Of a DNA stretch of 64,000 nt, positions 93 through 29,296 are shown piece by piece. Origin of the DNA: a virus. The translations under genes and the position numbers were made by a program. How positions within the stretch are numbered: position 1 is the first letter of the stretch; each line of letters opens with the position of its first letter. The DNA is taken from IMG/VR virus record IMGVR_UViG_3300035492_000030, positions 1 through 64,000 of that record; one strand, given 5' to 3'. Below the pieces are notes generated by a model. The model searched no databases, was not told where the DNA came from, and saw only the letters and a program-made list of their open reading frames with translations.

Positions 93-1010
93 TTAAACAA
101 TATTAGAAAGAAGTGAGTCGCGTTTTTCTTTGGAGAGTAAATTTACACGACTACGTTTCTGTTGTCCAGTGATTTTATTGCGGTAACGTTGATACTTACC
201 TAGTTGGGTATAATGGAATCCGTCCTTTTCCCACACACTCATGTCAAGAATTTCATCACAATATACGTCAAAGTTTGGAAGCTTGTTATCCCAACTACTT
301 AGGATATTATAAAGCTCTTCAAGAGAAAGAACATCCATTCGGTTATAATCTTCCATCTCTTGCCACGCTTCAAGATTACCCTTTAGGCATTCAGACCAAA
401 GGTCATGTCCGGCAAATTTCTTGTGCTTGCTTTTCTTGAAAGTGGTACAGAGCTTATCTGTCATGTACTCCAGTCGGTTGGAAGTAAACCCAAACTGCTG
501 CTTTGCAATCTCCATGGTATCAATTTGACGATAGGAAGACGGTTTCGGAAGACCGTTTAGGATAAAACGTGCATTAGCTTTCTTGGTATCAAATCGCTTA
601 CTATTTTGCCCAACGACAACATCGGCCTCATTAAGAAATTCCCAAAGCTTAGAGACAAGTTCAAAGTCATCCTCGATATCTACAGCATTGCGTTGGTCGT
701 AGTAGAACACTTCGTCAGAATGTGCCCATTTACAACAGAACGAGAGCATATACCAATCAGATTCAATTTGGCTAAGGCCAACACCTTGCTGCCACATAGA
801 CCACAGATGAGCACGCAGCGGAGCCGTTTCAATATCAAAAAATAGAATCTTAGGACTTAAATTTTTTAACGCCTCTGCTTGTGGTTGCTTAAACAGTTTG
901 CGAAGATAGTCTGAAACAGTTGACTTACTGACCCCAAGTTCCTGTCCAATCTTACGCCAGCTTTTACCACTTAAAGCCATTTCTTGTGCTTTCTCTTTCC
1001 AGTCACTCAC
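93..1010 (-). CDS. DnaQ/RNase H-fold 3'-5' exonuclease with N-terminal HTH
   Basis: 305-aa ORF. HTH-like GKSWRKIGQELGVSKSTVSDYLRK; Exo I FFDIETAP, Exo II GQNSKRFD, Exo III YNRMDV. Confidence 0.65.
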   Translation of the reverse strand: MSDWKEKAQEMALSGKSWRKIGQELGVSKSTVSDYLRKLFKQPQAEALKNLSPKILFFDIETAPLRAHLWSMWQQGVGLSQIESDWYMLSFCCKWAHSDEVFYYDQRNAVDIEDDFELVSKLWEFLNEADVVVGQNSKRFDTKKANARFILNGLPKPSSYRQIDTMEIAKQQFGFTSNRLEYMTDKLCTTFKKSKHKKFAGHDLWSECLKGNLEAWQEMEDYNRMDVLSLEELYNILSSWDNKLPNFDVYCDEILDMSVWEKDGFHYTQLGKYQRYRNKITGQQKRSRVNLLSKEKRDSLLSNIV

Positions 1011-1516: not shown

Positions 1517-1711
1517 TTACTCCTCCACATCAATAATCTTATCAACAGTAATTGGTTCATTCCATTCAGCAAGAACATTATCACATCCTTCAGAAACAGA
1601 GTCAAGAATCTTTTTAACCTCTTTCAGCTCACACTCAAGTCTAGATAGACGGTCGGCAATAGCATTCAACTTCTCAAAGATACGACGAAGGTCATATTCA
1701 TTCATGTACAT
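1517..1711 (-). CDS. Hypothetical protein (coiled-coil)
   Basis: 64-aa ORF, co-oriented, overlaps the upstream gene end by 14 nt. Confidence 0.5.
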   Translation of the reverse strand: MYMNEYDLRRIFEKLNAIADRLSRLECELKEVKKILDSVSEGCDNVLAEWNEPITVDKIIDVEE

Positions 1712-2234
1712 TCTTCATTCCCTCTATAAGTATATCCTCTATCTGTTTCCTGCGTCTTGCTTGCGTTGTGTGTGGAGTATAGCCTCTTTTCTCCAGCCAG
1801 TCAACATCTTTTTTCTCTTTACAAAGACGGATAGCCTCTTTGATACAAAGTGCTTCCTCAAAAGAAATTCCCATACGTTCAGCATAGGACTTTACCTTAT
1901 GAGCAGACTTGCTTACAACTGCCATGTTGTCTTTCCCTGTGCAAAGATGCTGAATGAATGGTAGTACATCATCCCAATCTTTCAAAGACACATGACCCTC
2001 TTTGTGGTCAATTTCAGCTTGAGAAATGGCTACCAGTTCACCCGTGAGTTCGCACTCAACAACACATCTAGCCTTACCCGTATAATCTTCGGGCGGTTTC
2101 ATTCCTTTAGAATTTTTATATTTTAACTTTGGAGGGTAAAATTGCCATACGGCTTTACGAAGCCCTGAACGGAGCCAAGTAAAGAACGCAACTTTATTTC
2201 TCCAGATTTCGGGGAATTCTTGCCACGGCTCCAT
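1698..2234 (-). CDS. Hypothetical protein with possible HNH-type nuclease motif
   Basis: 178-aa ORF. CVVECELTG...EIDHKEGH...DNMAVVSKSAHKVK resembles a C..C / DH / N / H beta-beta-alpha-Me layout. Weak call. Confidence 0.5.
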   Translation of the reverse strand: MEPWQEFPEIWRNKVAFFTWLRSGLRKAVWQFYPPKLKYKNSKGMKPPEDYTGKARCVVECELTGELVAISQAEIDHKEGHVSLKDWDDVLPFIQHLCTGKDNMAVVSKSAHKVKSYAERMGISFEEALCIKEAIRLCKEKKDVDWLEKRGYTPHTTQARRRKQIEDILIEGMKNVHE

Positions 2235-3214
2235 TAGGTTACTCCCATTTTATCAAGAATATCTTTTACAACAATACGATCATCTTTCCACCTACGCATA
2301 TGGGCACAGTCAAAGTACGATTGCATCATATCAATGTGGTTTGAAACTCTACCTTCTCCGGTCCAATCTGTGTACATGAATTCTTCTGGATACCAAGATA
2401 GATATAAGTCATGAATCTTCTGCCAGCATTCTTTGTCAGTCTTGAGGTCAGCAAAATCTTTAAAGAAAGATTTTTCACCGTAAGTTGCTTTGCACAACTG
2501 AGTTGGTTTGTATGAGTCAGATGGATCACCAACAGTTGCTTGATAGTAGAGCCACTTCCTGCCAAACCCATCTAGTTTATTTTTTGAGTTGAGGAACACT
2601 TGGCCAAGCCCTTCAATAAACTTAGGTTCACTCATCTTATCCCAATCATAGAGATAACCAGAACATTGCTTTGCGTCCTTGTCAATTGTACATTGAACGT
2701 AGCGTTTTTTACGCTTATAACCTTCCCAAGCATACATTGAAAGAATGTCATCGCTTTCACAGCCATTGGCTTTTTCAGCCTTATATTTCCTTAGTAAATA
2801 GTCTTTTACTTCACCAAGATGGTGTGGACGAATCATGTCTTGACGGCCAGATTTATACTTTACAGGAAGAGGAATATTGTCCCTGAAATTCCCTTCACCT
2901 TGAACGACTACCTTCAGCTCAGAGCATCCTGTTGCAGCTTGAATGTTCTTCAGCATGGCCTTAACAGTATGAAGGCAGTTGGCTATTGGCTCAACAGCTC
3001 GATCATCTTGAATTTCAAAATCATCTTCTGACCATCTGTCGTTTTGTTTAAGCCACTCTTTAAATTCAGTTCGATTGTTGAACTGCTTGCTTCGTTTAGA
3101 TTGTTTATGTGTGACAATAATAAATCGGGTTTCACAGGCTGCTGCCGCCTTGAACCCAATCAAATCTCCGTCCACGATACAAAGGCTCATATCTTCTCCA
3201 ATAAGAAAGCCCAC
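2234..3214 (-). CDS. 5'-3' exonuclease (T7 gp6-like)
   Basis: 326-aa ORF. LCIVDGDLIGFKAAAA, GCESDDILSMYAW, TIDKDAKQ and ATVGDPSDSYKP line up with the recalled T7 gp6 blocks VMDGDWLVFQAMSAAE, LEGDDVMG, SCDKDFKT, TIKGDITDGYSG. Confidence 0.65.
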   Translation of the reverse strand: MGFLIGEDMSLCIVDGDLIGFKAAAACETRFIIVTHKQSKRSKQFNNRTEFKEWLKQNDRWSEDDFEIQDDRAVEPIANCLHTVKAMLKNIQAATGCSELKVVVQGEGNFRDNIPLPVKYKSGRQDMIRPHHLGEVKDYLLRKYKAEKANGCESDDILSMYAWEGYKRKKRYVQCTIDKDAKQCSGYLYDWDKMSEPKFIEGLGQVFLNSKNKLDGFGRKWLYYQATVGDPSDSYKPTQLCKATYGEKSFFKDFADLKTDKECWQKIHDLYLSWYPEEFMYTDWTGEGRVSNHIDMMQSYFDCAHMRRWKDDRIVVKDILDKMGVT

Positions 3215-4156: not shown

Positions 4157-4378
4157 TTATACAGCCTCCTCAATTTTAATATACAGATGGAAATCCTTTA
4201 CTTCTTTATCAGAGTCTTCGTAAAAGAATTTCACATCCTTCCAATCACTTTCAACAATCTCTCGATCAAGAGCAAGTTCAACCTTCTTCATGATCGAATT
4301 ACATTCTTGATTACCACCAACATAAGCAAGGAGCTTTCCGATGGTCAGAAGTTCTTTTTCAGTGAAATCAATAAGCAT
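4157..4378 (-). CDS. Hypothetical protein
   Basis: The ORF-track start at 4390 is TTG. The ATG at 4378 is preceded by GGAGGAAACA. Confidence 0.55.
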   Translation of the reverse strand: MLIDFTEKELLTIGKLLAYVGGNQECNSIMKKVELALDREIVESDWKDVKFFYEDSDKEVKDFHLYIKIEEAV

Positions 4379-4433
4379 TGTTTCCTCCAATGAAGCCCTC
4401 CATATTTCAGAAGGGCTTTGAATTTAGTTTAGA

Positions 4434-5273
4434 CTAGAATGGTAGATCTTGGTCGTCAAAGTCTGGCGATGGCTCCTGCTGCTCTACAGGCTTCGGCTGT
4501 GGCTTCGGTTTCTGAGCTGGTTTTGGTTGTTGCTTAGTAGTTCCTTCCTTAGCTTCACCCTTTACATAAGCAGTAACTTCAGGAACAACTTGATCCAGAA
4601 GCATTAGAGCCATTTCCTCAACATCCTCAACATTATCTACTAGTTTACATGCGGTGAGGACAGATTGTCCAGCAGCAGCACCGACATCATATTCACTCAT
4701 GTTTGGATTGGCATCTTTATAAGCTTCCTTCACACGCTCGCTAACATCATGTAGCTGTTTTGCAACTTTAGCAATGTAGTCAAGACTGATATTACTCTCA
4801 CCTTGAATCAGGTTCATAGCAGCATTGATAGCATGACCCACTTGCACGCCAGTCATATCCTTTTTAAAGCCGCCAGAAGCGTTCTGAGAGCCTTGTGGAG
4901 TGCGTTGTTGTGGCTGAGAGGGTTTACCCTCGCCTTTCTTCACAAGCTTAATCTTGCTAGTACCGGAGTTATAATAGATTTTACCATTATACTCGTTCTC
5001 TGTTACAACAAGGCGTACTTCATCACCAACTTCAAGGGTTTGCCAATCTGGTTTTGCGTTGTTACCGTTGTTAAAGCGAATCTGCGGATCATACCCTTCC
5101 TTGGTTTTGATTGAGATGTTACCAACCCAATCACCATCAATCAGAACAGAAGCCCGATGCGTATTACCGAACCGATCATTGACAGCTTCTTTGAACATTA
5201 CACGTTCAACAACACCTTTGATAACAGTGATTTCTTCACCAGTTGCGGGGTTCTCTACCTTTGAAATTGCCAT
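4434..5273 (-). CDS. ssb: Single-stranded DNA-binding protein
   Basis: 279 aa, Gly/Pro/Gln-rich linker, acidic C-terminal tail DFDDQDLPF typical of SSB tips. Sits in the replication module. Confidence 0.7.
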   Translation of the reverse strand: MAISKVENPATGEEITVIKGVVERVMFKEAVNDRFGNTHRASVLIDGDWVGNISIKTKEGYDPQIRFNNGNNAKPDWQTLEVGDEVRLVVTENEYNGKIYYNSGTSKIKLVKKGEGKPSQPQQRTPQGSQNASGGFKKDMTGVQVGHAINAAMNLIQGESNISLDYIAKVAKQLHDVSERVKEAYKDANPNMSEYDVGAAAGQSVLTACKLVDNVEDVEEMALMLLDQVVPEVTAYVKGEAKEGTTKQQPKPAQKPKPQPKPVEQQEPSPDFDDQDLPF

Positions 5274-5275
5274 AA

Positions 5276-5449
5276 TTATTTACTCTCCTTCATTTGACGT
5301 TTGATTTGTTTCTCTAGAGCTTTCTGGCATTCAACAGCTACAATCTGAGCTGGAAGACCACGAGGTGCAATATTCTCATATTCTACGTTGGAAGTCAAGC
5401 CTGCTTCTCTAGCTTGACGACGAATAGCTTTTGCTACTTTAGCTCTCAT
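5276..5449 (-). CDS. Small hypothetical protein (57 aa, basic)
   Basis: Not in the ORF track (<60 aa). ATG at 5449 preceded by GGAGGATAAAT. Ends 3 nt before the SSB start. Confidence 0.45.
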   Translation of the reverse strand: MRAKVAKAIRRQAREAGLTSNVEYENIAPRGLPAQIVAVECQKALEKQIKRQMKESK

Positions 5450-5587
5450 ATTTATCCTCCATCAATTTAATTTGGATATTGAGATTGTCCTCCAAATACT
5501 CTTTAATAAGAGTTTGGATCGTTTCTTTGTCCATATTCTCCTCCGTTTGTTTGTATGCGTATATTTTACGGCATTTCTAAAGGTGTG

Positions 5588-6100
5588 TCAACAAGAAATT
5601 TCATTTGAAACAGCATCAATCAGCTTTCGTGCTTCTTGAATGTAGTAATCATAGTTCACATCACCTTTAAAGTCAAGAATGTTGTTACATGTCGAAACTT
5701 TCCAATCCGTGTCAATACCAAGTCTACGCCATTCTTCACCACCGTTCAAAGGAGGCATGATCTTGATTAGCTTACCACCCCCTTGCTTTACAGGATAGTA
5801 GCGGCAGATGTTTTGTTGCTCAATCACTTCACCATCTTCCATTTCAAGCACTAGACGAGATGACTTTGGTACTTTGGTTCGTAGGAAGAAATCATATTTA
5901 TCATCATGTACACGGATGAAATCCTCAAAGTCACCCATACCGAGCAAATGGTATAGAGCGGACATTGGAATAACCATAGCTGATTGATTTTTATGCCAAC
6001 CAATTTTATCAAATGGCATTACCTCATATCTACCTTTTGTTTTTATTTTACCAGACGATATAAGATTTCTAATGATTTTAACTTCTTCATCGTGCGTCAT
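5588..6100 (-). CDS. DNA polymerase C-terminal fragment (putative thumb part of split polymerase)
   Basis: 170 aa from the ATG at 6100 (GAGAGGA RBS; the ORF-track start at 6115 is TTG). GKIKTKGRYEV fits the K-G-x-E block that follows KxY in family-B polymerases. Lies directly after the HEG that terminates the polymerase ORF. Confidence 0.5.
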   Translation of the reverse strand: MTHDEEVKIIRNLISSGKIKTKGRYEVMPFDKIGWHKNQSAMVIPMSALYHLLGMGDFEDFIRVHDDKYDFFLRTKVPKSSRLVLEMEDGEVIEQQNICRYYPVKQGGGKLIKIMPPLNGGEEWRRLGIDTDWKVSTCNNILDFKGDVNYDYYIQEARKLIDAVSNEISC

Positions 6101-6740
6101 AAGGAATCCTCTCAATCATCCAACCTTTAAATTCTATCTTATTTGTCTTGTATTTAAAAAATTTACTAATACAACCTTTTAATCCGAGTTCAGAAAGCTT
6201 TTTGTAAAGCACAATTTCCTCATAATTATCTTTTCGGATTACATACTTGTATTTAGTTAAAGTCTTACTCATCAATTTGGACTGTTCATCTCTATCTCTA
6301 CGCAACCACGATTCTTTTAACTTTAAACCGTGTGAATCTCTTACACCGTTTTCCCATTCTGTTTTTAATCTTTTTGAGATTTTAATTGATGTATCTGGGT
6401 GTGTAATCATACCACCATCAGAATCATTTCTCAAATTATAACCAAAAGATTTATCGTGCGAATTGAAATAATCCATCCAGAATACTTCTCTTTCCGCAAT
6501 TATATCTTGTTCGCAAATTTCTATTATTCTGAAAATAAAATTTTCATATCCGTACTTCACCATAGATTTTAGCATGTATTCATTTATATGTTTTACAGAT
6601 TTTTTACGGAATCCTGTATTATACTGAGAATTTCTTCTGTAGAAACATTTAGTTCTACCTATATAACATTTACCATTTACGGTATTTGTTATTTTGTAAA
6701 TACCTCCACAATCCTTAAATTTTACATCTATCAATTTCAC
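6087..6740 (-). CDS. GIY-YIG homing endonuclease
   Basis: GIYKITNTVNGKCYIGRTKCFYRRNSQY (GIY...YIG...R) at the N-terminus. The start overlaps the polymerase stop by 4 nt. Confidence 0.8.
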   Translation of the reverse strand: MKLIDVKFKDCGGIYKITNTVNGKCYIGRTKCFYRRNSQYNTGFRKKSVKHINEYMLKSMVKYGYENFIFRIIEICEQDIIAEREVFWMDYFNSHDKSFGYNLRNDSDGGMITHPDTSIKISKRLKTEWENGVRDSHGLKLKESWLRRDRDEQSKLMSKTLTKYKYVIRKDNYEEIVLYKKLSELGLKGCISKFFKYKTNKIEFKGWMIERIPYDAR

Positions 6741-8425
6741 TTCTTGTCCTCTTTTACGGCAACATACGAGTTAACATCAGCAATATACATTACAGAGTAG
6801 GTGTCACCTTCCATAGTAAGACCTGTAATATCTTCCCACCATTTGACCCATTTGTCGGCTTCATCAAAATTATCAACATCACACAGATACTCAAAACCAT
6901 CTGTATTGCACATGATAATTGTTGCACCACAATGGTCAATAAGTTTTTCCATCAACATGCAAAGTGATAGCTGTCCACCAATCGTAATTGACATTGTGTA
7001 AGCAGGATCACACAGAGGGCTAAACTCGTTGTTTGAATCCCCGTACACTCCATTCAAAGCAAGCTTTAGAGCTGCGTTTGCCGCACTTCCTTTAGGGTGA
7101 CTCTTACGTTCTTCATAAAGCTCTTTATACACCTTACAGAAGGTTTCACCTAAGTGTTGAGGATAAATCTTGTTAGCAATAGCCATGTTTGGGTAATACG
7201 ATGCAACGTCAAGCGTCCGAATCTTTCGCTTATCATTGCTACGAACAGTGCCTTGAACTGCACCATGAATACCACCAACACCGTAGTCATAACGGAATCC
7301 GTTGATAACTACATTCATCGTTTCAGCTACATTGTAACACCAATAATAACTCTTTGCTCCTTTTGGGGATTTTAGTTCTTTTTCCTCAATCCAACCAAGA
7401 GGCTGCTCTTTGCGAAGCTGTGCGATTTGTTCTTCAGTTGGAACATATCGCTTATTCTTTTTATCAACTGGATCAGATAGTTTTTTCTTCTTGACCACCA
7501 TTGCTGCATATTTAGCAACTTCACCAAGATCATGTTCAAGCAAATCACTAAATACACCTTTTGTTTCAGTAATGACTTGTTTCTTGAACCAATCATGAAC
7601 GGCTTTGAACTCAGGACGATCAAATTTAATGTAAGGAAACAGACAGTCATTAATCACAATTCGATCACGTTTAGTCTGGTTAATAGTTCTACCAAACTTG
7701 TTTCGAGTGTAACAGCAACCCGGACTAACTTCTTCAAGACGACGAATGAACAGTTCTTTGCCGATCTTAGTATCATTAAAATTGGTGCAGTCAAATCCGA
7801 ATTGCTGAGTCAAATCCTCACGAAGTTTTAGCGCATCATAGGAATACCAATAGAACTTCAAAGTTTCACGAATATCATTCTTGTTATATTTTACAACAAT
7901 ATCCATTTGTTCTGGAGACAATACAGTTCCGACAGGAAACGGAAGTTCTTCAATATTCTGAGAACGCATATTAAATTCAAGCATCTTCAGAGAAGTTGAA
8001 CGAGCGGCGTTATCAAAATGGTGAACTTTAAAAAGATCAACTTGAGGAATAATTACCTCTGACTCTTTAATCTTTTTACCAAAACGGTCATCTTTCATGG
8101 AATTGATGATATCCATAGCAACTTTATACAGTTCTTTTGCTGTAATTTTAAGTTGTTCACCATCTTTCTTAGCTTTGCGTGCTTTCTCCAAAATGTAATG
8201 AATAACAGGATAGTCAAACCCCTCATTGTTAAATCCAACCATCCTATATCCACCAGCTTTTACCTTGCGAAGAAAATCAAGCATTTCTTCAGCTTCGTTT
8301 TTACGAGTGCTGATTTCAAAAACACGCTCACCTTTTCCATTAGCGTAAATTACGCCAAGGCTGAAAAAGTTCGGATAAGTCTCGATGTCGAATACCCAGT
8401 CCGTTTTAAACCACTTCTTTTGCAT
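6737..8425 (-). CDS. DNA polymerase, family-B-like, N-terminal part (exonuclease plus palm motifs A-C)
   Basis: Exo I DIETYPNFF, Exo II NNEGFDYPV, Exo III YNKNDI. Motif A LDVASYYPNM, motif B KLALNGVYG, motif C MCNTDGFEY. The ORF ends about 55 aa after motif C. Confidence 0.8.
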   Translation of the reverse strand: MQKKWFKTDWVFDIETYPNFFSLGVIYANGKGERVFEISTRKNEAEEMLDFLRKVKAGGYRMVGFNNEGFDYPVIHYILEKARKAKKDGEQLKITAKELYKVAMDIINSMKDDRFGKKIKESEVIIPQVDLFKVHHFDNAARSTSLKMLEFNMRSQNIEELPFPVGTVLSPEQMDIVVKYNKNDIRETLKFYWYSYDALKLREDLTQQFGFDCTNFNDTKIGKELFIRRLEEVSPGCCYTRNKFGRTINQTKRDRIVINDCLFPYIKFDRPEFKAVHDWFKKQVITETKGVFSDLLEHDLGEVAKYAAMVVKKKKLSDPVDKKNKRYVPTEEQIAQLRKEQPLGWIEEKELKSPKGAKSYYWCYNVAETMNVVINGFRYDYGVGGIHGAVQGTVRSNDKRKIRTLDVASYYPNMAIANKIYPQHLGETFCKVYKELYEERKSHPKGSAANAALKLALNGVYGDSNNEFSPLCDPAYTMSITIGGQLSLCMLMEKLIDHCGATIIMCNTDGFEYLCDVDNFDEADKWVKWWEDITGLTMEGDTYSVMYIADVNSYVAVKEDKK

Positions 8426-8476
8426 AGATTCCTCGTGTCCTGTGAATGGATTGGAGGGATTCTACACCCTCCTTTC

Positions 8477-9070
8477 TCAGAAGTCAAGTGAATTTTGATT
8501 AAAAGCTAATCCGTGCCTATCTGTATAACCATAACCGCAAGAATTTAACTTTTCAATTTGTTTATTTCTAAATTCAATTGCTAGTTTAAAAGCAGTATCT
8601 TCACCGTATTTATCAATACTGAAATATTTACATTTTTCAATACCGTTTTCCCTCCATCTTGTCATAAAGTATTCATTACCGCAACCGTTATTCATTCTTG
8701 TAACACCTGTCACTCCGGTAGAATTTGTACTCCTTAATTTTTGATTTCTTGAATTAATTTCATTTGTTACAATCCTCAAATTAGACGGGTTATTGTTATT
8801 TTTATTACCATCAATATGGTCAATTTGATAGTTTCCATCTAAATCGTTTTCGGAATTTAAACAGTATATTATTCTATGAACCTTATAAGATTTACCAAAT
8901 AACTTTACATCGTAATAACCTGAATGGTGAAGAAATCCAGCATCGTCACCAGCTTTAAATTTAGTATTATTAGATATTTTTCTTTTCAACCAAGTTTTAG
9001 ATTCACTATCTATATAAAAATATTTTGACATTTCATCAAATGAAATTTTATTGTATTTCATTATTATCAC
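8477..9070 (-). CDS. HNH homing endonuclease with AP2-like DNA-binding domain
   Basis: IDHIDGNKNNNNPSNLRIVTNEINSRN (HNH_3-type), then STGVTGVTR...W...AFKLAIEFR (AP2-like). Free-standing between the primase-helicase and polymerase genes. Confidence 0.8.
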   Translation of the reverse strand: MIIMKYNKISFDEMSKYFYIDSESKTWLKRKISNNTKFKAGDDAGFLHHSGYYDVKLFGKSYKVHRIIYCLNSENDLDGNYQIDHIDGNKNNNNPSNLRIVTNEINSRNQKLRSTNSTGVTGVTRMNNGCGNEYFMTRWRENGIEKCKYFSIDKYGEDTAFKLAIEFRNKQIEKLNSCGYGYTDRHGLAFNQNSLDF

Positions 9071-9077
9071 CTACATT

Positions 9078-10835
9078 TTAAAAATCAACAACCATATCTT
9101 GAGATTGCTCATAATTTTTTTGGTCATGTTCATCAACAGTAGCGTAAGGATTCGCTGTTGCAAACATATGAGTTGTTGCGTGGTCATATTTTAACCATCC
9201 AGCTTCACCTGTGTTACCAGTACGACGACACTTGACAAGCTGCACCTTAGTGGCTGAACGCTTCACGGGATCGCTGTTCATCTTGTCCCGACTAATCAAG
9301 ATCGTGTTAAACGCAATTTGATTAATGCTAGAGCTACCCATAAGGTCATATTCACTGACAGCGTGTGGATCTTCCCCAGAAGGTTTACGCATGTGCGATA
9401 CAGCAATTACACTAGTATCGGTCTGCTTTGCAAACTTCAGCAGAGTGTCCATGAACTCAATAATTGCACCGTTGTCACTGCTATTAACACCCGCTTGAAC
9501 GGGATCAATGATAATTACATCACAACCCTCGGCTTTTGCGAGATAATTTAGCTTATCAAAAATCTCAGCAGTTGAGATACTACCCTGATGGTCAACGTAA
9601 ACGAATTGATCTTTCTTAGCAAGCCCCTCAAAGAATCGACGTTTCAGAGAATCAATATCAACCATGTTTCGATCAGCAGTACGCAGATTCACACCAGCAT
9701 CAAGCGACACAAGGTCACGAACAACCTCACGCTTAGTACCTTCAAGATACATTGCACCAACTTTGAACTTAGTGTTCTCAATTAAGTTATAAACAATGTT
9801 ATTAACAATCGAAGATTTGCCAATCGACGTAAGTGCCCCGATGACCGTGATTTCGCCCTTTTCGATACCCCCGTTCATCATCTCGTTTAGATGACTCCAA
9901 GCAGCAGGGAACGGAATTTTTACATTATCATCTTCATTTTCAAAATCTTCCCACATTTGGGATAGGTGCAGAATATCCACACGACTAAAAGGAACAGCCT
10001 TCCAAAAGATTTGCTTTAGTTCGCTAACACGATTCATCCGAAGAAGATCGCAAGCGTCCTTAACATCTGCTGGGAATTTAGCAATAAATGCTTTACCCGG
10101 AGAAATCAGGCGCGCGGCTTCCTCAATATAACGTTGTCCGCTTTCATCATTGTCAAAGGCAAGAATGACTTTTTCAAAGCTGTTAATGTATTCAAAATTA
10201 GCTTTGAATTGTTTGATAATACTACCGTCGCCACAAGTTACGCTAACACAAGGAGTCCAATATTCAACCTTATTACCATCTTTGTCGGTTTGTTCACTGT
10301 AAAGAACCTGAGAAAAAGCCATCGCATCTTCTTCACCCGTGGTGATTACTAGATACTTTTGACCTTTCTCAAATACAGCTTGACCAAACATTTCATTAGT
10401 AGCTTTTACACTACCAATTGCAGCAAAGTCCTTAGTTGCAATAATTCGTTTCTTATAACCTACAATCTTACCGTCTACAGTGGACGGATAGAATCGAGTA
10501 GTTGCCTCATCTTCACCTTGAATCTCAGTGCGGACACCATACTTGCGAGAAGTAATGCGAGTAATAGCGCGAGCCTTCCAACCTCGGAACTGAATCTTTT
10601 CAATATCAGAGAAGTCTACAACTTGATTTTGTTTACTTACTACTTCCACCATTTTTACTCCTGCTTCCTCTACTTTTTCAGGATTAAAATACTTATTACA
10701 AGAGAAACAAAAGGCATCAATTATATTTCCGTCATCTGTTTCTTTAGAGTATACAGCCATTGCATCAGAGCTATCACACTCGATGCAGCTTGCATGATAC
10801 ATCAGTTCACCATTATTTTCTTCGTATTTACTCAA
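9078..10835 (-). CDS. Bifunctional primase-helicase (T7 gp4-like)
   Basis: Zn finger CIECDS...CFSCNKY. TOPRIM TTGEEDAMAF / AFDNDESG. Walker A GALTSIGKSS. Walker B VIIIDPV. Confidence 0.85.
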   Translation of the reverse strand: MSKYEENNGELMYHASCIECDSSDAMAVYSKETDDGNIIDAFCFSCNKYFNPEKVEEAGVKMVEVVSKQNQVVDFSDIEKIQFRGWKARAITRITSRKYGVRTEIQGEDEATTRFYPSTVDGKIVGYKKRIIATKDFAAIGSVKATNEMFGQAVFEKGQKYLVITTGEEDAMAFSQVLYSEQTDKDGNKVEYWTPCVSVTCGDGSIIKQFKANFEYINSFEKVILAFDNDESGQRYIEEAARLISPGKAFIAKFPADVKDACDLLRMNRVSELKQIFWKAVPFSRVDILHLSQMWEDFENEDDNVKIPFPAAWSHLNEMMNGGIEKGEITVIGALTSIGKSSIVNNIVYNLIENTKFKVGAMYLEGTKREVVRDLVSLDAGVNLRTADRNMVDIDSLKRRFFEGLAKKDQFVYVDHQGSISTAEIFDKLNYLAKAEGCDVIIIDPVQAGVNSSDNGAIIEFMDTLLKFAKQTDTSVIAVSHMRKPSGEDPHAVSEYDLMGSSSINQIAFNTILISRDKMNSDPVKRSATKVQLVKCRRTGNTGEAGWLKYDHATTHMFATANPYATVDEHDQKNYEQSQDMVVDF

Positions 10836-28573: not shown

Positions 28574-29296
28574 CTACAATTCAGATACGTCATTCAGTAT
28601 AGCACCTTCTCCATGAATTTCAACAGCTTTCTTATTATAAGCCATGGCTGCTTCCTGTTCGGATGCAAACTGACCTATCCAAATATATCCACCATTTCCG
28701 TCTCCAATTCTAGCAACCCAAGGTTTATTCCTATCTTTACTAAAAGATACCCCTCTATATTTTGAAGTATTCTTTTCTGTCTTTTCTTGTCGACGATTAT
28801 ATGACTGAGTACGCCTGTTTGACCATCTACAATTTTCTTTACAATAACCTCTATCTACATCAATCCTGTCTAAAGAAGTTCCTTCTGGGCGTTCTCCCAT
28901 GTCGTGTAGAAAATTTAAAAATCCATTAGGGCTTTCCTCTAACCAAGATTCTTCTTCTACAATAATCCCCCTACCACCATAATTTTCCCAACCAAGCCTT
29001 TTATCATTATAGCACCTGTGCATCATCGCAATAAAACTTTGATATTCGGGAGTATTTTTACCATCTTGATAACCACCATGCTTTCTATTTGATTCCGAAA
29101 GCATTTGACTTGTTGCGCAACCACAGGATTTTGTACTACCGTTTTTAAGACGCTGATGAGTTGTGTCATGTAAATTACCACAATCGCATTTACAAGTCCA
29201 TTTCTTTGACTTACTATAATCCTGTGCTCGGTATAAAACCGTCAGCATACCGAATTTAATTCCTTCCAGTTTAAGTTTTCGTAAAGCCATTTTCAA
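28574..29296 (-). CDS. Homing endonuclease (degenerate HNH DRID..GY..NCRW plus AP2-like domain)
   Basis: CKCDCGN...SCGC zinc motif, GERPEGTSLDRIDVDRGYCKENCRWS, then SKYRGVSF...WVARI (AP2-like). Paralog of 42612..43526. Confidence 0.65.
   Translation of the reverse strand: MKMALRKLKLEGIKFGMLTVLYRAQDYSKSKKWTCKCDCGNLHDTTHQRLKNGSTKSCGCATSQMLSESNRKHGGYQDGKNTPEYQSFIAMMHRCYNDKRLGWENYGGRGIIVEEESWLEESPNGFLNFLHDMGERPEGTSLDRIDVDRGYCKENCRWSNRRTQSYNRRQEKTEKNTSKYRGVSFSKDRNKPWVARIGDGNGGYIWIGQFASEQEAAMAYNKKAVEIHGEGAILNDVSEL

Follow-up and report, generated by a model that had tools for sequence, protein, structure and literature searches.

Essential genes that are split by a free-standing homing endonuclease gene (HEG), with neither an intron nor an intein involved, have been studied in very few instances, and a survey from 2023 cites a single one, nrdA of phage Aeh1 (PMC10448857). 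This gene is interrupted by the HNH-type gene mobE, and the active enzyme needs the tails that derive from the insertion (Friedrich 2007; Crona et al. 2011, PMC3045599). In a second system, summarised in PMC2988022, gene 43 is split in the Aeromonas phages 25 and 44RR, phage 25 carries seg43(25), a gene of the GIY-YIG type, in the gap, and gp43A and gp43B of phage 25 co-purify and polymerise (Petrov et al. 2006, 2010). A comparable arrangement is described here for the DNA polymerase gene in positions 1 to 64,000 of the IMG/VR virus record IMGVR_UViG_3300035492_000030; this 64,000-nucleotide (nt) stretch, referred to below as the window, is part of a genome of ~81 kb, of which ~17 kb lie outside it.

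Kelman, Pietrokovski and Hurwitz are said to have described, in 1999 (JBC 274:28751), a split family B polymerase in Methanothermobacter thermautotrophicus that consists of a large N-terminal and a small C-terminal polypeptide. The fractured genes combine split inteins with an intervening endonuclease gene, and their halves are trans-spliced (Dassa et al. 2009, PMC2677866). Group I introns with endonuclease genes are found in phage polymerase genes, such as those of SPO1 relatives, Bastille, and Pf-WMP3 (PMC3428280 and references listed in PMC10580990). Finally, HNH-AP2 (IPA-HNH) and other endonuclease genes are located beside polymerase genes at recombination boundaries (Barth et al. 2023, PMC10448857).

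In the window, a cassette with a GIY-YIG HEG has very probably been copied into the gene for a family B DNA polymerase, with a two-polypeptide enzyme as the result. Direct support for this comes from the anatomy of the locus, the presence or absence of the insert at one and the same site, the diverged sequences that flank it, purifying selection on all three open reading frames (ORFs), and the lack of an intron or intein. We further infer assembly of the two pieces into an active enzyme, cleavage of DNA by the endonuclease, and a role for the leader peptide of the second piece.

The polymerase gene, its break point, and its place in family B

The locus consists of three ORFs that overlap end to end on the minus strand: polN, for the N-terminal fragment of the polymerase; the GIY-YIG gene; and polC, for the C-terminal fragment (Table 1). 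The 3' end of polN reads ..GTA AAA GAG GAC AAG AAG TGA, and the GTG start codon of the GIY-YIG ORF overlaps its TGA stop codon (GTGA), with AAAGAGGA 6 nt upstream of that start. In turn, polC overlaps the 3' end of the GIY-YIG ORF by 14 nt and has GAGAGGA 6 nt before its ATG; in the ORF listing, its reading frame can be extended in the 5' direction to a TTG at 6115. Both fragments match a single profile, PHROG 1252 (DNA polymerase, 663 positions), of which polN covers positions 52-510 (E = 2e-150) and polC positions 510-653 (E = 3e-23), a two-part coverage that is far beyond chance; polC also matches PHROG 15833. The GC content is ~0.30 over the GIY-YIG ORF, compared to 0.38-0.41 in its surroundings. 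A megablast search with the region 5400..8600 gave no match among the deposited phage genomes; this is a phage without a close cultured relative.

A preliminary description of the window, prepared from the sequence alone, had reported these three ORFs at the same coordinates, with the polN stop overlapping the HEG start and polC overlapping the HEG end behind a GAGAGGA ribosome-binding site (RBS) of its own. The ORF listing and the sequence bear this out, and the distance of about 55 amino acids (aa) that it gave between motif C and the end of polN is 52 aa when measured from NTDG. The Exo I-III motifs and palm motifs A, B, and C that it listed for the 562-aa ORF are likewise all found where it had put them.

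The polymerase belongs to a divergent clade. There is no match to the Pfam family DNA_pol_B at E values up to 0.1, with weak matches to RNase_H_2 and DNA_pol_B_exo2, and the matched PHROG families carry only the name "DNA polymerase." A single-sequence phmmer search against the PDB is similarly weak, its best match (E = 0.038) being to chain 3kd1_E, deposited as "DNA polymerase," which we take to be an RB69-type enzyme. The profile of 34 intact relatives (alignment A2), on the other hand, matches the family B polymerases of Thermococcus and Pyrococcus in the PDB with an E value of 1.6e-8, aligning DvaSyYPn with DFRSLYPS in motif A, KLaLNgvYG with KILANSVYG in motif B, and NTDGv with DTDGF in motif C; further on, the profile segment rdvnnYiavyedgkvkskGaYe, which covers the hairpin discussed below, is aligned to its counterpart in the KOD polymerase. 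The AlphaFold model of P0129, an intact relative of 713 aa that is 83% identical to polN, has a pLDDT of 89.9 and a pTM of 0.83, and in a Foldseek search of this model against the PDB the best 50 matches are all family B polymerases (E values from 4.5e-13 to 3e-10, probability 1.0, TM scores of 0.31-0.48). Profile and fold comparison together place the enzyme in family B, as had been proposed. Its N-terminal fragment shares 55-58% identity with the polymerases of two Pseudomonas phages, SYP and phiPMW.

The replacement of the first Asp of motif C by Asn, which the preliminary description had pointed out, is real and departs from the family B consensus (Y)xDTDS. However, NTDG is invariant in all 34 relatives in A2 and in all 58 in a larger alignment, A3, intact ones included, so the Asn is a family trait rather than a sign of decay. 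The second Asp of the motif, a metal ligand in the RB69 and phi29 polymerases, is present.

Alignment with intact homologues puts the break between the E and S residues of the loop ..NNYISVTE/SGKVK.KG... The P0129 model shows a hairpin composed of strands 552-557 (NYISVT) and 562-565 (VKTK), with the split in the connecting loop, residues 558-561 (ESGK). As modelled, the break is in the beta-hairpin loop between the KxY-equivalent strand and the K-x-K-G strand, at the junction of palm and thumb. The GKIKTKGRYEV block of polC, previously assigned to the thumb-proximal K-G-x-E region, is aligned to the archaeal PolB strand that directly follows the KxY strand. The assignment of the 170-aa ORF to the C terminus of the polymerase agrees with its alignment to the C termini of the polymerases of SYP (728 aa), Ab3-TPeters, and BS46, full-length homologues that continue past the point where the 562-aa ORF ends.

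The AlphaFold model of polC alone has a pLDDT of 87.2, and a Foldseek search with it against the PDB yielded no significant match (best E = 0.22). Judging from the models, the C-terminal domain of polC is in the thumb position and is not demonstrably a canonical thumb. Residues ~70-170 (within 5588..6049) are predicted to consist mostly of beta strands with a final helix, at pLDDT values above 90, in a fold that is not recognised in the PDB.

Table 1. Features of the split polymerase locus, listed in the direction of transcription (positions in the window)
Feature	Position	Strand	Remarks
polN, N-terminal polymerase fragment	6737..8425	minus	ORF of 562 aa, ATG start; exonuclease domain, palm motifs A and C, fingers motif B, KxY-equivalent strand
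Exo I, DIETYPN (aa 13-19)	8369..8389	minus	D and E invariant in alignments A2 and A3
Exo II, GFNNEGFDY (aa 64-72)	8210..8236	minus	Aligned with NGDNFDF of KOD polymerase
Exo III, YNKNDIRET (aa 180-188)	7862..7888	minus	Y, N, and D invariant in A2
Motif A, LDVASYYPNM (aa 405-414)	7184..7213	minus	Aligned with LDFRSLYPS of Thermococcus PolB
Motif B, KLALNGVYG (aa 454-462)	7040..7066	minus	Aligned with KILANSVYG of Thermococcus PolB (G for S), also with KVTCNSLYG of PDB 3kd1_E
Motif C, NTDGFEY (aa 507-513)	6887..6907	minus	Aligned with DTDGF of Thermococcus PolB; N for first Asp
Upstream diverged flank	6750..6847	minus	DNA identity to L095 0.71-0.81 over gene nt 1579-1676
DVNSYVAV, KxY-equivalent strand	6755..6778	minus	First strand of the broken hairpin; aligned with KKKYAVI of KOD polymerase; strand 552-557 in the model of the intact relative
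polN tail, KEDKK	6740..6754	minus	Not present in intact alleles
Shine-Dalgarno sequence of the endonuclease gene, codons AAA GAG GA	6747..6754	minus	Within the polN tail
Inserted cassette, 693 nt	6057..6749	minus	Missing at this nucleotide position in the intact alleles of both L094 and L095 (DNA alignment)
GIY-YIG homing endonuclease gene	6087..6740	minus	ORF of 217 aa, GTG start
Shine-Dalgarno sequence of polC, GAGAGGA	6107..6113	minus	Within the codons for the conserved IERI at the C terminus of the endonuclease
polC, C-terminal polymerase fragment	5588..6100	minus	ORF of 170 aa from ATG; second hairpin strand and C-terminal thumb-position domain
polC leader, MTHDEEVKIIRNLISSG	6050..6100	minus	First ~15 aa missing from intact alleles
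Downstream diverged flank	5929..6056	minus	DNA identity to L095 0.60-0.71
KIKTKGRYEV, second hairpin strand	6020..6049	minus	Within polC

Insertion of the cassette and other inserts at the same loop

Uninterrupted polymerases were found by tblastn in three deposited phages, Pseudomonas phage SYP and Acinetobacter phages Ab3-TPeters and BS46, in each of which polN and polC match adjacent parts of a single ORF. In the metagenome collection, the closest relative of polN, at locus L096, is 97% identical and also split, with the same three ORFs and the same neighbours. The next-closest relatives (82-85% identity) are intact proteins of 713-715 aa. Among these intact alleles, L095, which is 85-93% identical to the window at the DNA level over the neighbourhood, encodes a polymerase of 713 aa, and L094 is likewise intact. 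The comparison with HEG-free relatives that had been suggested at the outset shows that L094 and L095 lack exactly 693 nt, the endonuclease gene that is present in the window and L096 being missing from both. The insert has a GC content of 0.29, versus 0.38 in polN and polC, and contains the tail codons and stop codon of polN, the RBS and ORF of the endonuclease, and the RBS, start codon, and leader of polC. Rejoining its two sides gives an in-frame ..VAVKE/SGKIKTKG.., to be compared with ..SVTE/SGKVKTKG.. in the intact proteins; the intact allele of L095 reads ..AATAACTATATTAGCGTTACAGAATCAGGAAAGGTAAAA.. around the loop.

The insert is bordered by tracts that differ from L095 far more than the rest of the gene (Table 1): outside these flanks, DNA identity is 0.89-1.00 over gene nt 589-1579 and 0.93-0.98 over nt 2497-2838. 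In the protein, the first 43 residues past the insert share 72-82% identity with the split alleles (with the exception of L035, L045, and L027) and 57-68% with the intact ones; this difference between split and intact alleles is confined to the post-insert segment and is not seen in the rest of the protein. Flanks of ~100 nt upstream and ~130 nt downstream are consistent with co-conversion during double-strand-break repair, of which they are a signature and not a demonstration. The absence of the 693 nt as a whole, combined with the diverged flanks, indicates that in the lineage of the window the cassette arrived as a unit with its endonuclease gene.

The GIY-YIG ORF matches Pfam family PF01541 (E = 7.6e-10; score of 39.4 bits, cut-off 22.6) and the "homing endonuclease" families PHROG 314, 7168, and 5123, in line with its initial identification as a GIY-YIG homing endonuclease gene between the two parts of the polymerase. 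It contains the motifs GIYKITN (aa 13-19) and YIGRT (aa 26-30) and is 44-63% identical to the ORFs found at the same site in other phages.

Comparison of the junctions in 15 split alleles suggests that the translation signals travel with the cassette. The polN tail of the split alleles ends with K-E-stop, and its AAG GAG or AAA GAG codons double as the Shine-Dalgarno sequence for the endonuclease ORF, the start codon of which, often GTG or TTG, follows 0-8 nt further on; AAGGAG or AAAGAG directly before the polN stop is common to cassettes of the GIY-YIG and HNH types. The Shine-Dalgarno sequence of polC is located in the last conserved codons of the endonuclease gene; in cassettes of the GIY-YIG type it reads ATT GAG AGG AT (I-E-R-I), and in those of the HNH type GGAGAAAGAGA. 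The leader of polC has the pattern M.H.EEV..IR.LISSG, which is kept at the protein level across diverged split alleles despite many synonymous differences; its residues 3-15 are predicted to form an amphipathic helix (pLDDT of 82-85 in the monomer model). By analogy with the NrdA tails, the leader may possibly have a role in the assembly of the fragments. A terminator scan found no terminator-like site between the three ORFs, and the best promoter-like site of the region is located directly past the polC stop codon, so that polN, the endonuclease gene, and polC are probably co-transcribed.

These features can be combined into the following scheme. A mobile cassette with a free-standing GIY-YIG HEG would have been copied into the hairpin loop of the polymerase gene, turning one gene into three ORFs translated from one transcript. 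It would have supplied the stop codon of polN, the Shine-Dalgarno sequence of the HEG (as the codons of the K-E tail), and the HEG, and also the Shine-Dalgarno sequence of polC (in the last HEG codons), its start codon, and a helical leader of ~15 aa. The 562-aa and 170-aa polypeptides would reassemble non-covalently, with the hairpin strands pairing again and the C-terminal domain docking, possibly with the help of the leader. The endonuclease would presumably cut the intact alleles of co-infecting relatives near the insertion site, and repair would then copy the cassette with ~100-130 nt of flank into the cut alleles.

Several points weigh against this scheme. Selection on the new termini, instead of co-conversion, could account for part of the divergence in the flanks. 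Cleavage of HEG-less alleles and homing by the GIY-YIG protein are presumed activities, and the association of the fragments and polymerisation by them are derived by analogy from the precedents; both weaken the case. The leader helix comes from a monomer prediction, and the leader cannot be strictly required, given the leaderless split alleles of phiAB441, fEV-1, KpTRp1, and L059. With 20 ORFs scanned and 64 of ~81 kb covered, a second polymerase could be encoded elsewhere in the genome. Lastly, in the neighbor-joining tree of the polymerases, split alleles occur interspersed with intact ones, and in places a GIY-YIG and an HNH allele are sisters (L017 with L008, L016 with L018); this tree lacks support values and is subject to confounding by recombination.

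The same loop hosts several kinds of inserts. GIY-YIG genes of one family are found in the window, in phages phiAB441, fEV-1, and KpTRp1, and at loci L008/9, L016, L035, and L045; they are 41-67% identical to one another (99-100% in the near-duplicate loci L008 and L009). Genes of the HNH_3 type occupy the loop in L006/7, L010, L017/18, L038, and L059. Locus L065 (4069-4992) carries an insert of ~1 kb with a GIY-YIG variant of 307 aa, the C-terminal half of which is unlike the family of ~217 aa. In L027 (IMG/VR 3300024051_000005, 4346-5011), a GIY-YIG gene of the family found in the window is frameshifted into ORFs of 61 and 157 aa while polN and polC are intact, which looks like a decaying endonuclease gene in a persisting split. 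Leader-type and leaderless junctions are each found both with GIY-YIG and with HNH genes.

This diversity also suits the strongest alternative, namely, that the split predates the present HEG: an earlier insertion would have produced the two genes and the leader, and the GIY-YIG and HNH genes would be later tenants of the gap. The K-E-stop tail and the leader are indeed common to unrelated cassettes, GIY-YIG in the window, L008, L016, and L045 and HNH in L006, L010, L017, L018, and L038, and the sister relationships in the tree join polymerases with inserts of both types. Furthermore, phiPMW retains the split and a leader-type polC although its gap (L001:4194-4609) holds two small non-endonuclease ORFs, gp197 and gp198, of 69 aa each, with no Pfam match and a host-like GC content of 0.48. 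The same doubt has been voiced for gene 43 of phage 25 (PMC2988022). For the window, an older split nevertheless appears unlikely: the whole 693 nt, tail and leader included, are missing from a genome that is 85-93% identical, with diverged tracts on either side. In addition, the leaderless splits in the very distant phages phiAB441, fEV-1, and KpTRp1, which lie in the same loop ~1 residue further on, contain genes of the same GIY-YIG family, an argument that this endonuclease family is able to create the split by itself.

Taken across alleles, the data argue for several independent invasions along with exchange of endonuclease genes within existing splits, as judged from the sequence comparisons. 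For the leader-type split as a whole, the first element to break the gene may have been of the GIY-YIG type or another. It may tentatively be suggested, as a possibility that we consider doubtful, that the hairpin loop is a general landing pad and that the moving unit is a gene-splitting module, consisting of a stop codon with an RBS, a swappable GIY-YIG or HNH gene, a second RBS, a start codon, and a helical leader selected for re-association of the fragments, in the manner of the insertion-derived tails of split NrdA. If so, endonuclease cassettes would bring their own "repair kit" for the essential genes that they break, and endonuclease families would swap inside this kit.

Other endonuclease genes are found in the window, which has at least four genes of this type. 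A gene for an HNH_3 + AP2 endonuclease (8477..9070, minus strand, 197 aa, GC content of 0.28) separates the primase/helicase gene from polN; L094 lacks it, and L095 has an unrelated 210-aa ORF in its place. The first ~540 nt of polN (about 7885..8425) are only 0.53-0.72 identical to L095, compared to at least 0.9 further into the gene, so that the 5' end of polN beside the HNH_3 + AP2 gene looks like a second boundary of co-conversion or exchange. Two further HNH endonuclease ORFs are encoded at 1698..2234 (minus strand, PHROG 1985) and 28574..29296 (minus strand, PHROG 374).

Probable function and occurrence of the two-piece polymerase

Relative to L096, the ratio of nonsynonymous to synonymous substitution rates (dN/dS) is 0.061 for polN, 0.099 for the endonuclease gene, and 0.064 for polC; in every comparison other than that of the window with L096 and that of the endonuclease genes of L008 and L016, dS is saturated. 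All catalytic motifs of polN are intact. The preliminary description had left the choice between a polymerase made of two polypeptides and an inactive one. The former is the better reading and, in light of the precedents, by far the most likely state, although the association and activity of the two pieces are drawn from those precedents; the latter is unlikely in view of the low dN/dS values and the presence of the split in cultured phages.

Stand-alone C fragments are widespread. Nearly all of the best 120 matches of polC, in a search with a word-based prefilter that favours close relatives, are stand-alone proteins of 117-298 aa, each from a separate 90%-identity cluster. Proteins with the length of an N fragment (559-571 aa) make up ~29 of the best 120 polN clusters, out of 4795 polN matches in the metagenome collections at E <= 1e-20. 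The split was seen in 9 of 83 IMG/VR loci, which were collected with an alignment as the query instead of the single polC protein, as the latter had retrieved 5 loci. Four cultured phages are split at the same loop: phiPMW (fragments gp196 and gp199), phiAB441, Yersinia phage fEV-1 (junction ..NNYIAVYE-stop / MKIKRKGAYEY), and Klebsiella phage KpTRp1 (..NSYLQISK-stop / MKIKRKGAYEY). The deposited annotations of phiPMW and phiAB441 each list two "DNA polymerase" coding sequences (CDS); no discussion of these pairs was found in the literature, the paper on phiPMW being silent on the split. In phiAB441, the N-terminal part is itself annotated as two CDS, of 359 and 183 aa, separated by a gap of 122 nt (L002:3565-3688); this gap is distinct from the endonuclease split and represents an additional break or else a frameshift due to sequencing.

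The same observations bear on the possibility that the polymerase has been inactivated and the ORFs are decaying remnants, with another polymerase, from the phage or its host, being used instead. The Asn in motif C, the lack of a Pfam DNA_pol_B match, and the ~17 kb outside the window, which could encode another polymerase, would all fit this explanation. It is very unlikely, though, given a dN/dS of 0.06 in both fragments since the divergence from L096, intact catalytic motifs with an NTDG that intact relatives share, the stand-alone C fragments in separate clusters among the best 120 polC matches, and the split in four cultured phages. No second polymerase was seen among the 20 window ORFs that were scanned against family libraries.

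It is highly improbable that a full-length polymerase is restored through a group I intron, through an intein, whole or split, or through translational bypass. In favor of this, deletion of exactly 693 nt restores the frame (..VAVKE/SGKIKTKG..), polN and polC are in the same frame in the window, and HEG-bearing introns are common in phage polymerase genes, according to the references listed in PMC10580990. However, an Rfam search of the region 5300..9300 at E values up to 10 revealed no intron, giving only chance-level matches to snoRNA and miRNA families; only 39 nt of the 693-nt insert are outside the endonuclease ORF; and the RNA folds at both junctions are no better than those of shuffled sequences (z ~0). 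From the Rfam result and these folds, it follows that there is neither an intron nor an RBS-hiding hairpin of the mobE or I-TevI kind, and the earlier view of a free-standing HEG that leaves no room for intron RNA is sustained. No Hint/intein domain was found in the Pfam scan, and the 5-aa tail of polN and the ~15-aa leader of polC are too short for the halves of a split intein. In addition, polC has a conserved Shine-Dalgarno sequence, a start codon, and a leader conserved at the protein level.

The insert has a length of exactly 231 codons, and polN and polC share a frame in the window. This was considered as a hint of read-through or of an intein and rejected because other split alleles differ in the relative frames of the two fragments; it is probably a coincidence. 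The contig is probably metagenome-derived and has no close match among the deposited phage genomes. An error of assembly or sequencing, such as a chimeric contig or a spurious stop codon, can be practically dismissed, as the same architecture is seen in L096, from an independent sample and with 97% protein identity, and in many other contigs and cultured phage genomes.

The 305-aa ORF at 93..1010 (minus strand) combines an N-terminal helix-turn-helix with an RNase_H_2-type exonuclease domain (PHROG 403, "DNA polymerase exonuclease subunit") and adjoins a 5'-3' exonuclease-like ORF at 2234..3214. The 279-aa ORF at 4434..5273 (minus strand) ends with ..DFDDQDLPF and has weak matches to single-strand DNA-binding protein families; it is probably a phage single-strand DNA-binding protein with the usual acidic tail.

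The alleles described here form a natural series in another family B polymerase: intact, GIY-YIG split, HNH split, split with a decayed HEG (L027), and split with no HEG (phiPMW), with and without the leader. Since some members of the series are cultured phages, the questions that it opens can be tested directly, namely, how the polymerase tolerates a break between palm and thumb, whether insertion-derived peptides contribute to assembly, and how endonuclease genes replace each other at one site. On the practical side, annotation pipelines label the C fragment a "hypothetical protein" or call two "DNA polymerases," and co-converted flanks will distort polymerase-based phage phylogenies.

Comparison with described split genes

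Endonuclease genes cluster at polymerase genes in the phages surveyed by Barth et al. as well, including Barbaviruses with the same polymerase family, and sequence identity shifts sharply at the endonuclease gene there as it does here. Those cases are mostly intergenic, however, and gene splitting is mentioned there only for ribonucleotide reductase (PMC10448857). The group I introns resemble the cassette in that an HEG interrupts a phage polymerase gene at a conserved site; they are spliced as RNA, whereas the window has neither intron RNA nor the space for it. The fractured genes, known from phage or metagenome DNA, are likewise essential genes with a free-standing endonuclease gene between their halves; the locus in the window differs from them in having a 5-aa tail, a 15-aa leader, and no intein domain. 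The polymerase of M. thermautotrophicus is a two-piece family B enzyme like the one described here, but it is cellular and has no endonuclease gene between its halves.

The preliminary description had referred to T4-related phages with HEG-split genes, and the precedent holds in the two closest systems: genes 43A and 43B of phage 25 with seg43(25), and nrdA of Aeh1 with mobE (PMC2988022). Like nrdA, the polymerase gene is an essential gene with a free-standing HEG in it, the halves of which are translated separately and have acquired new C- and N-terminal tails. The two differ in the host gene and the endonuclease family, and the tails are essential in NrdA, while the role of the leader is proposed here by analogy; mobE also has an RBS-sequestering hairpin, none of which was detected at the junctions in the window. 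In gene 43 of phage 25, as here, the family B replicative polymerase of a phage is encoded by two cistrons with a free-standing endonuclease gene between them, and it is similarly in doubt whether that gene made the split or moved into it. The polymerase lineage is different, T4-type gp43 in phage 25 and PHROG 1252 here, for which the documented break is at the palm/thumb hairpin, with two endonuclease families across many lineages and a conserved leader. The locus in the window is therefore of the same kind as split gene 43 and the mobE-split nrdA, being neither a fractured gene with split inteins nor an intron-bearing gene, and differs from the known splits in its polymerase lineage, its documented site at the palm/thumb hairpin, its two endonuclease families, and its conserved leader.

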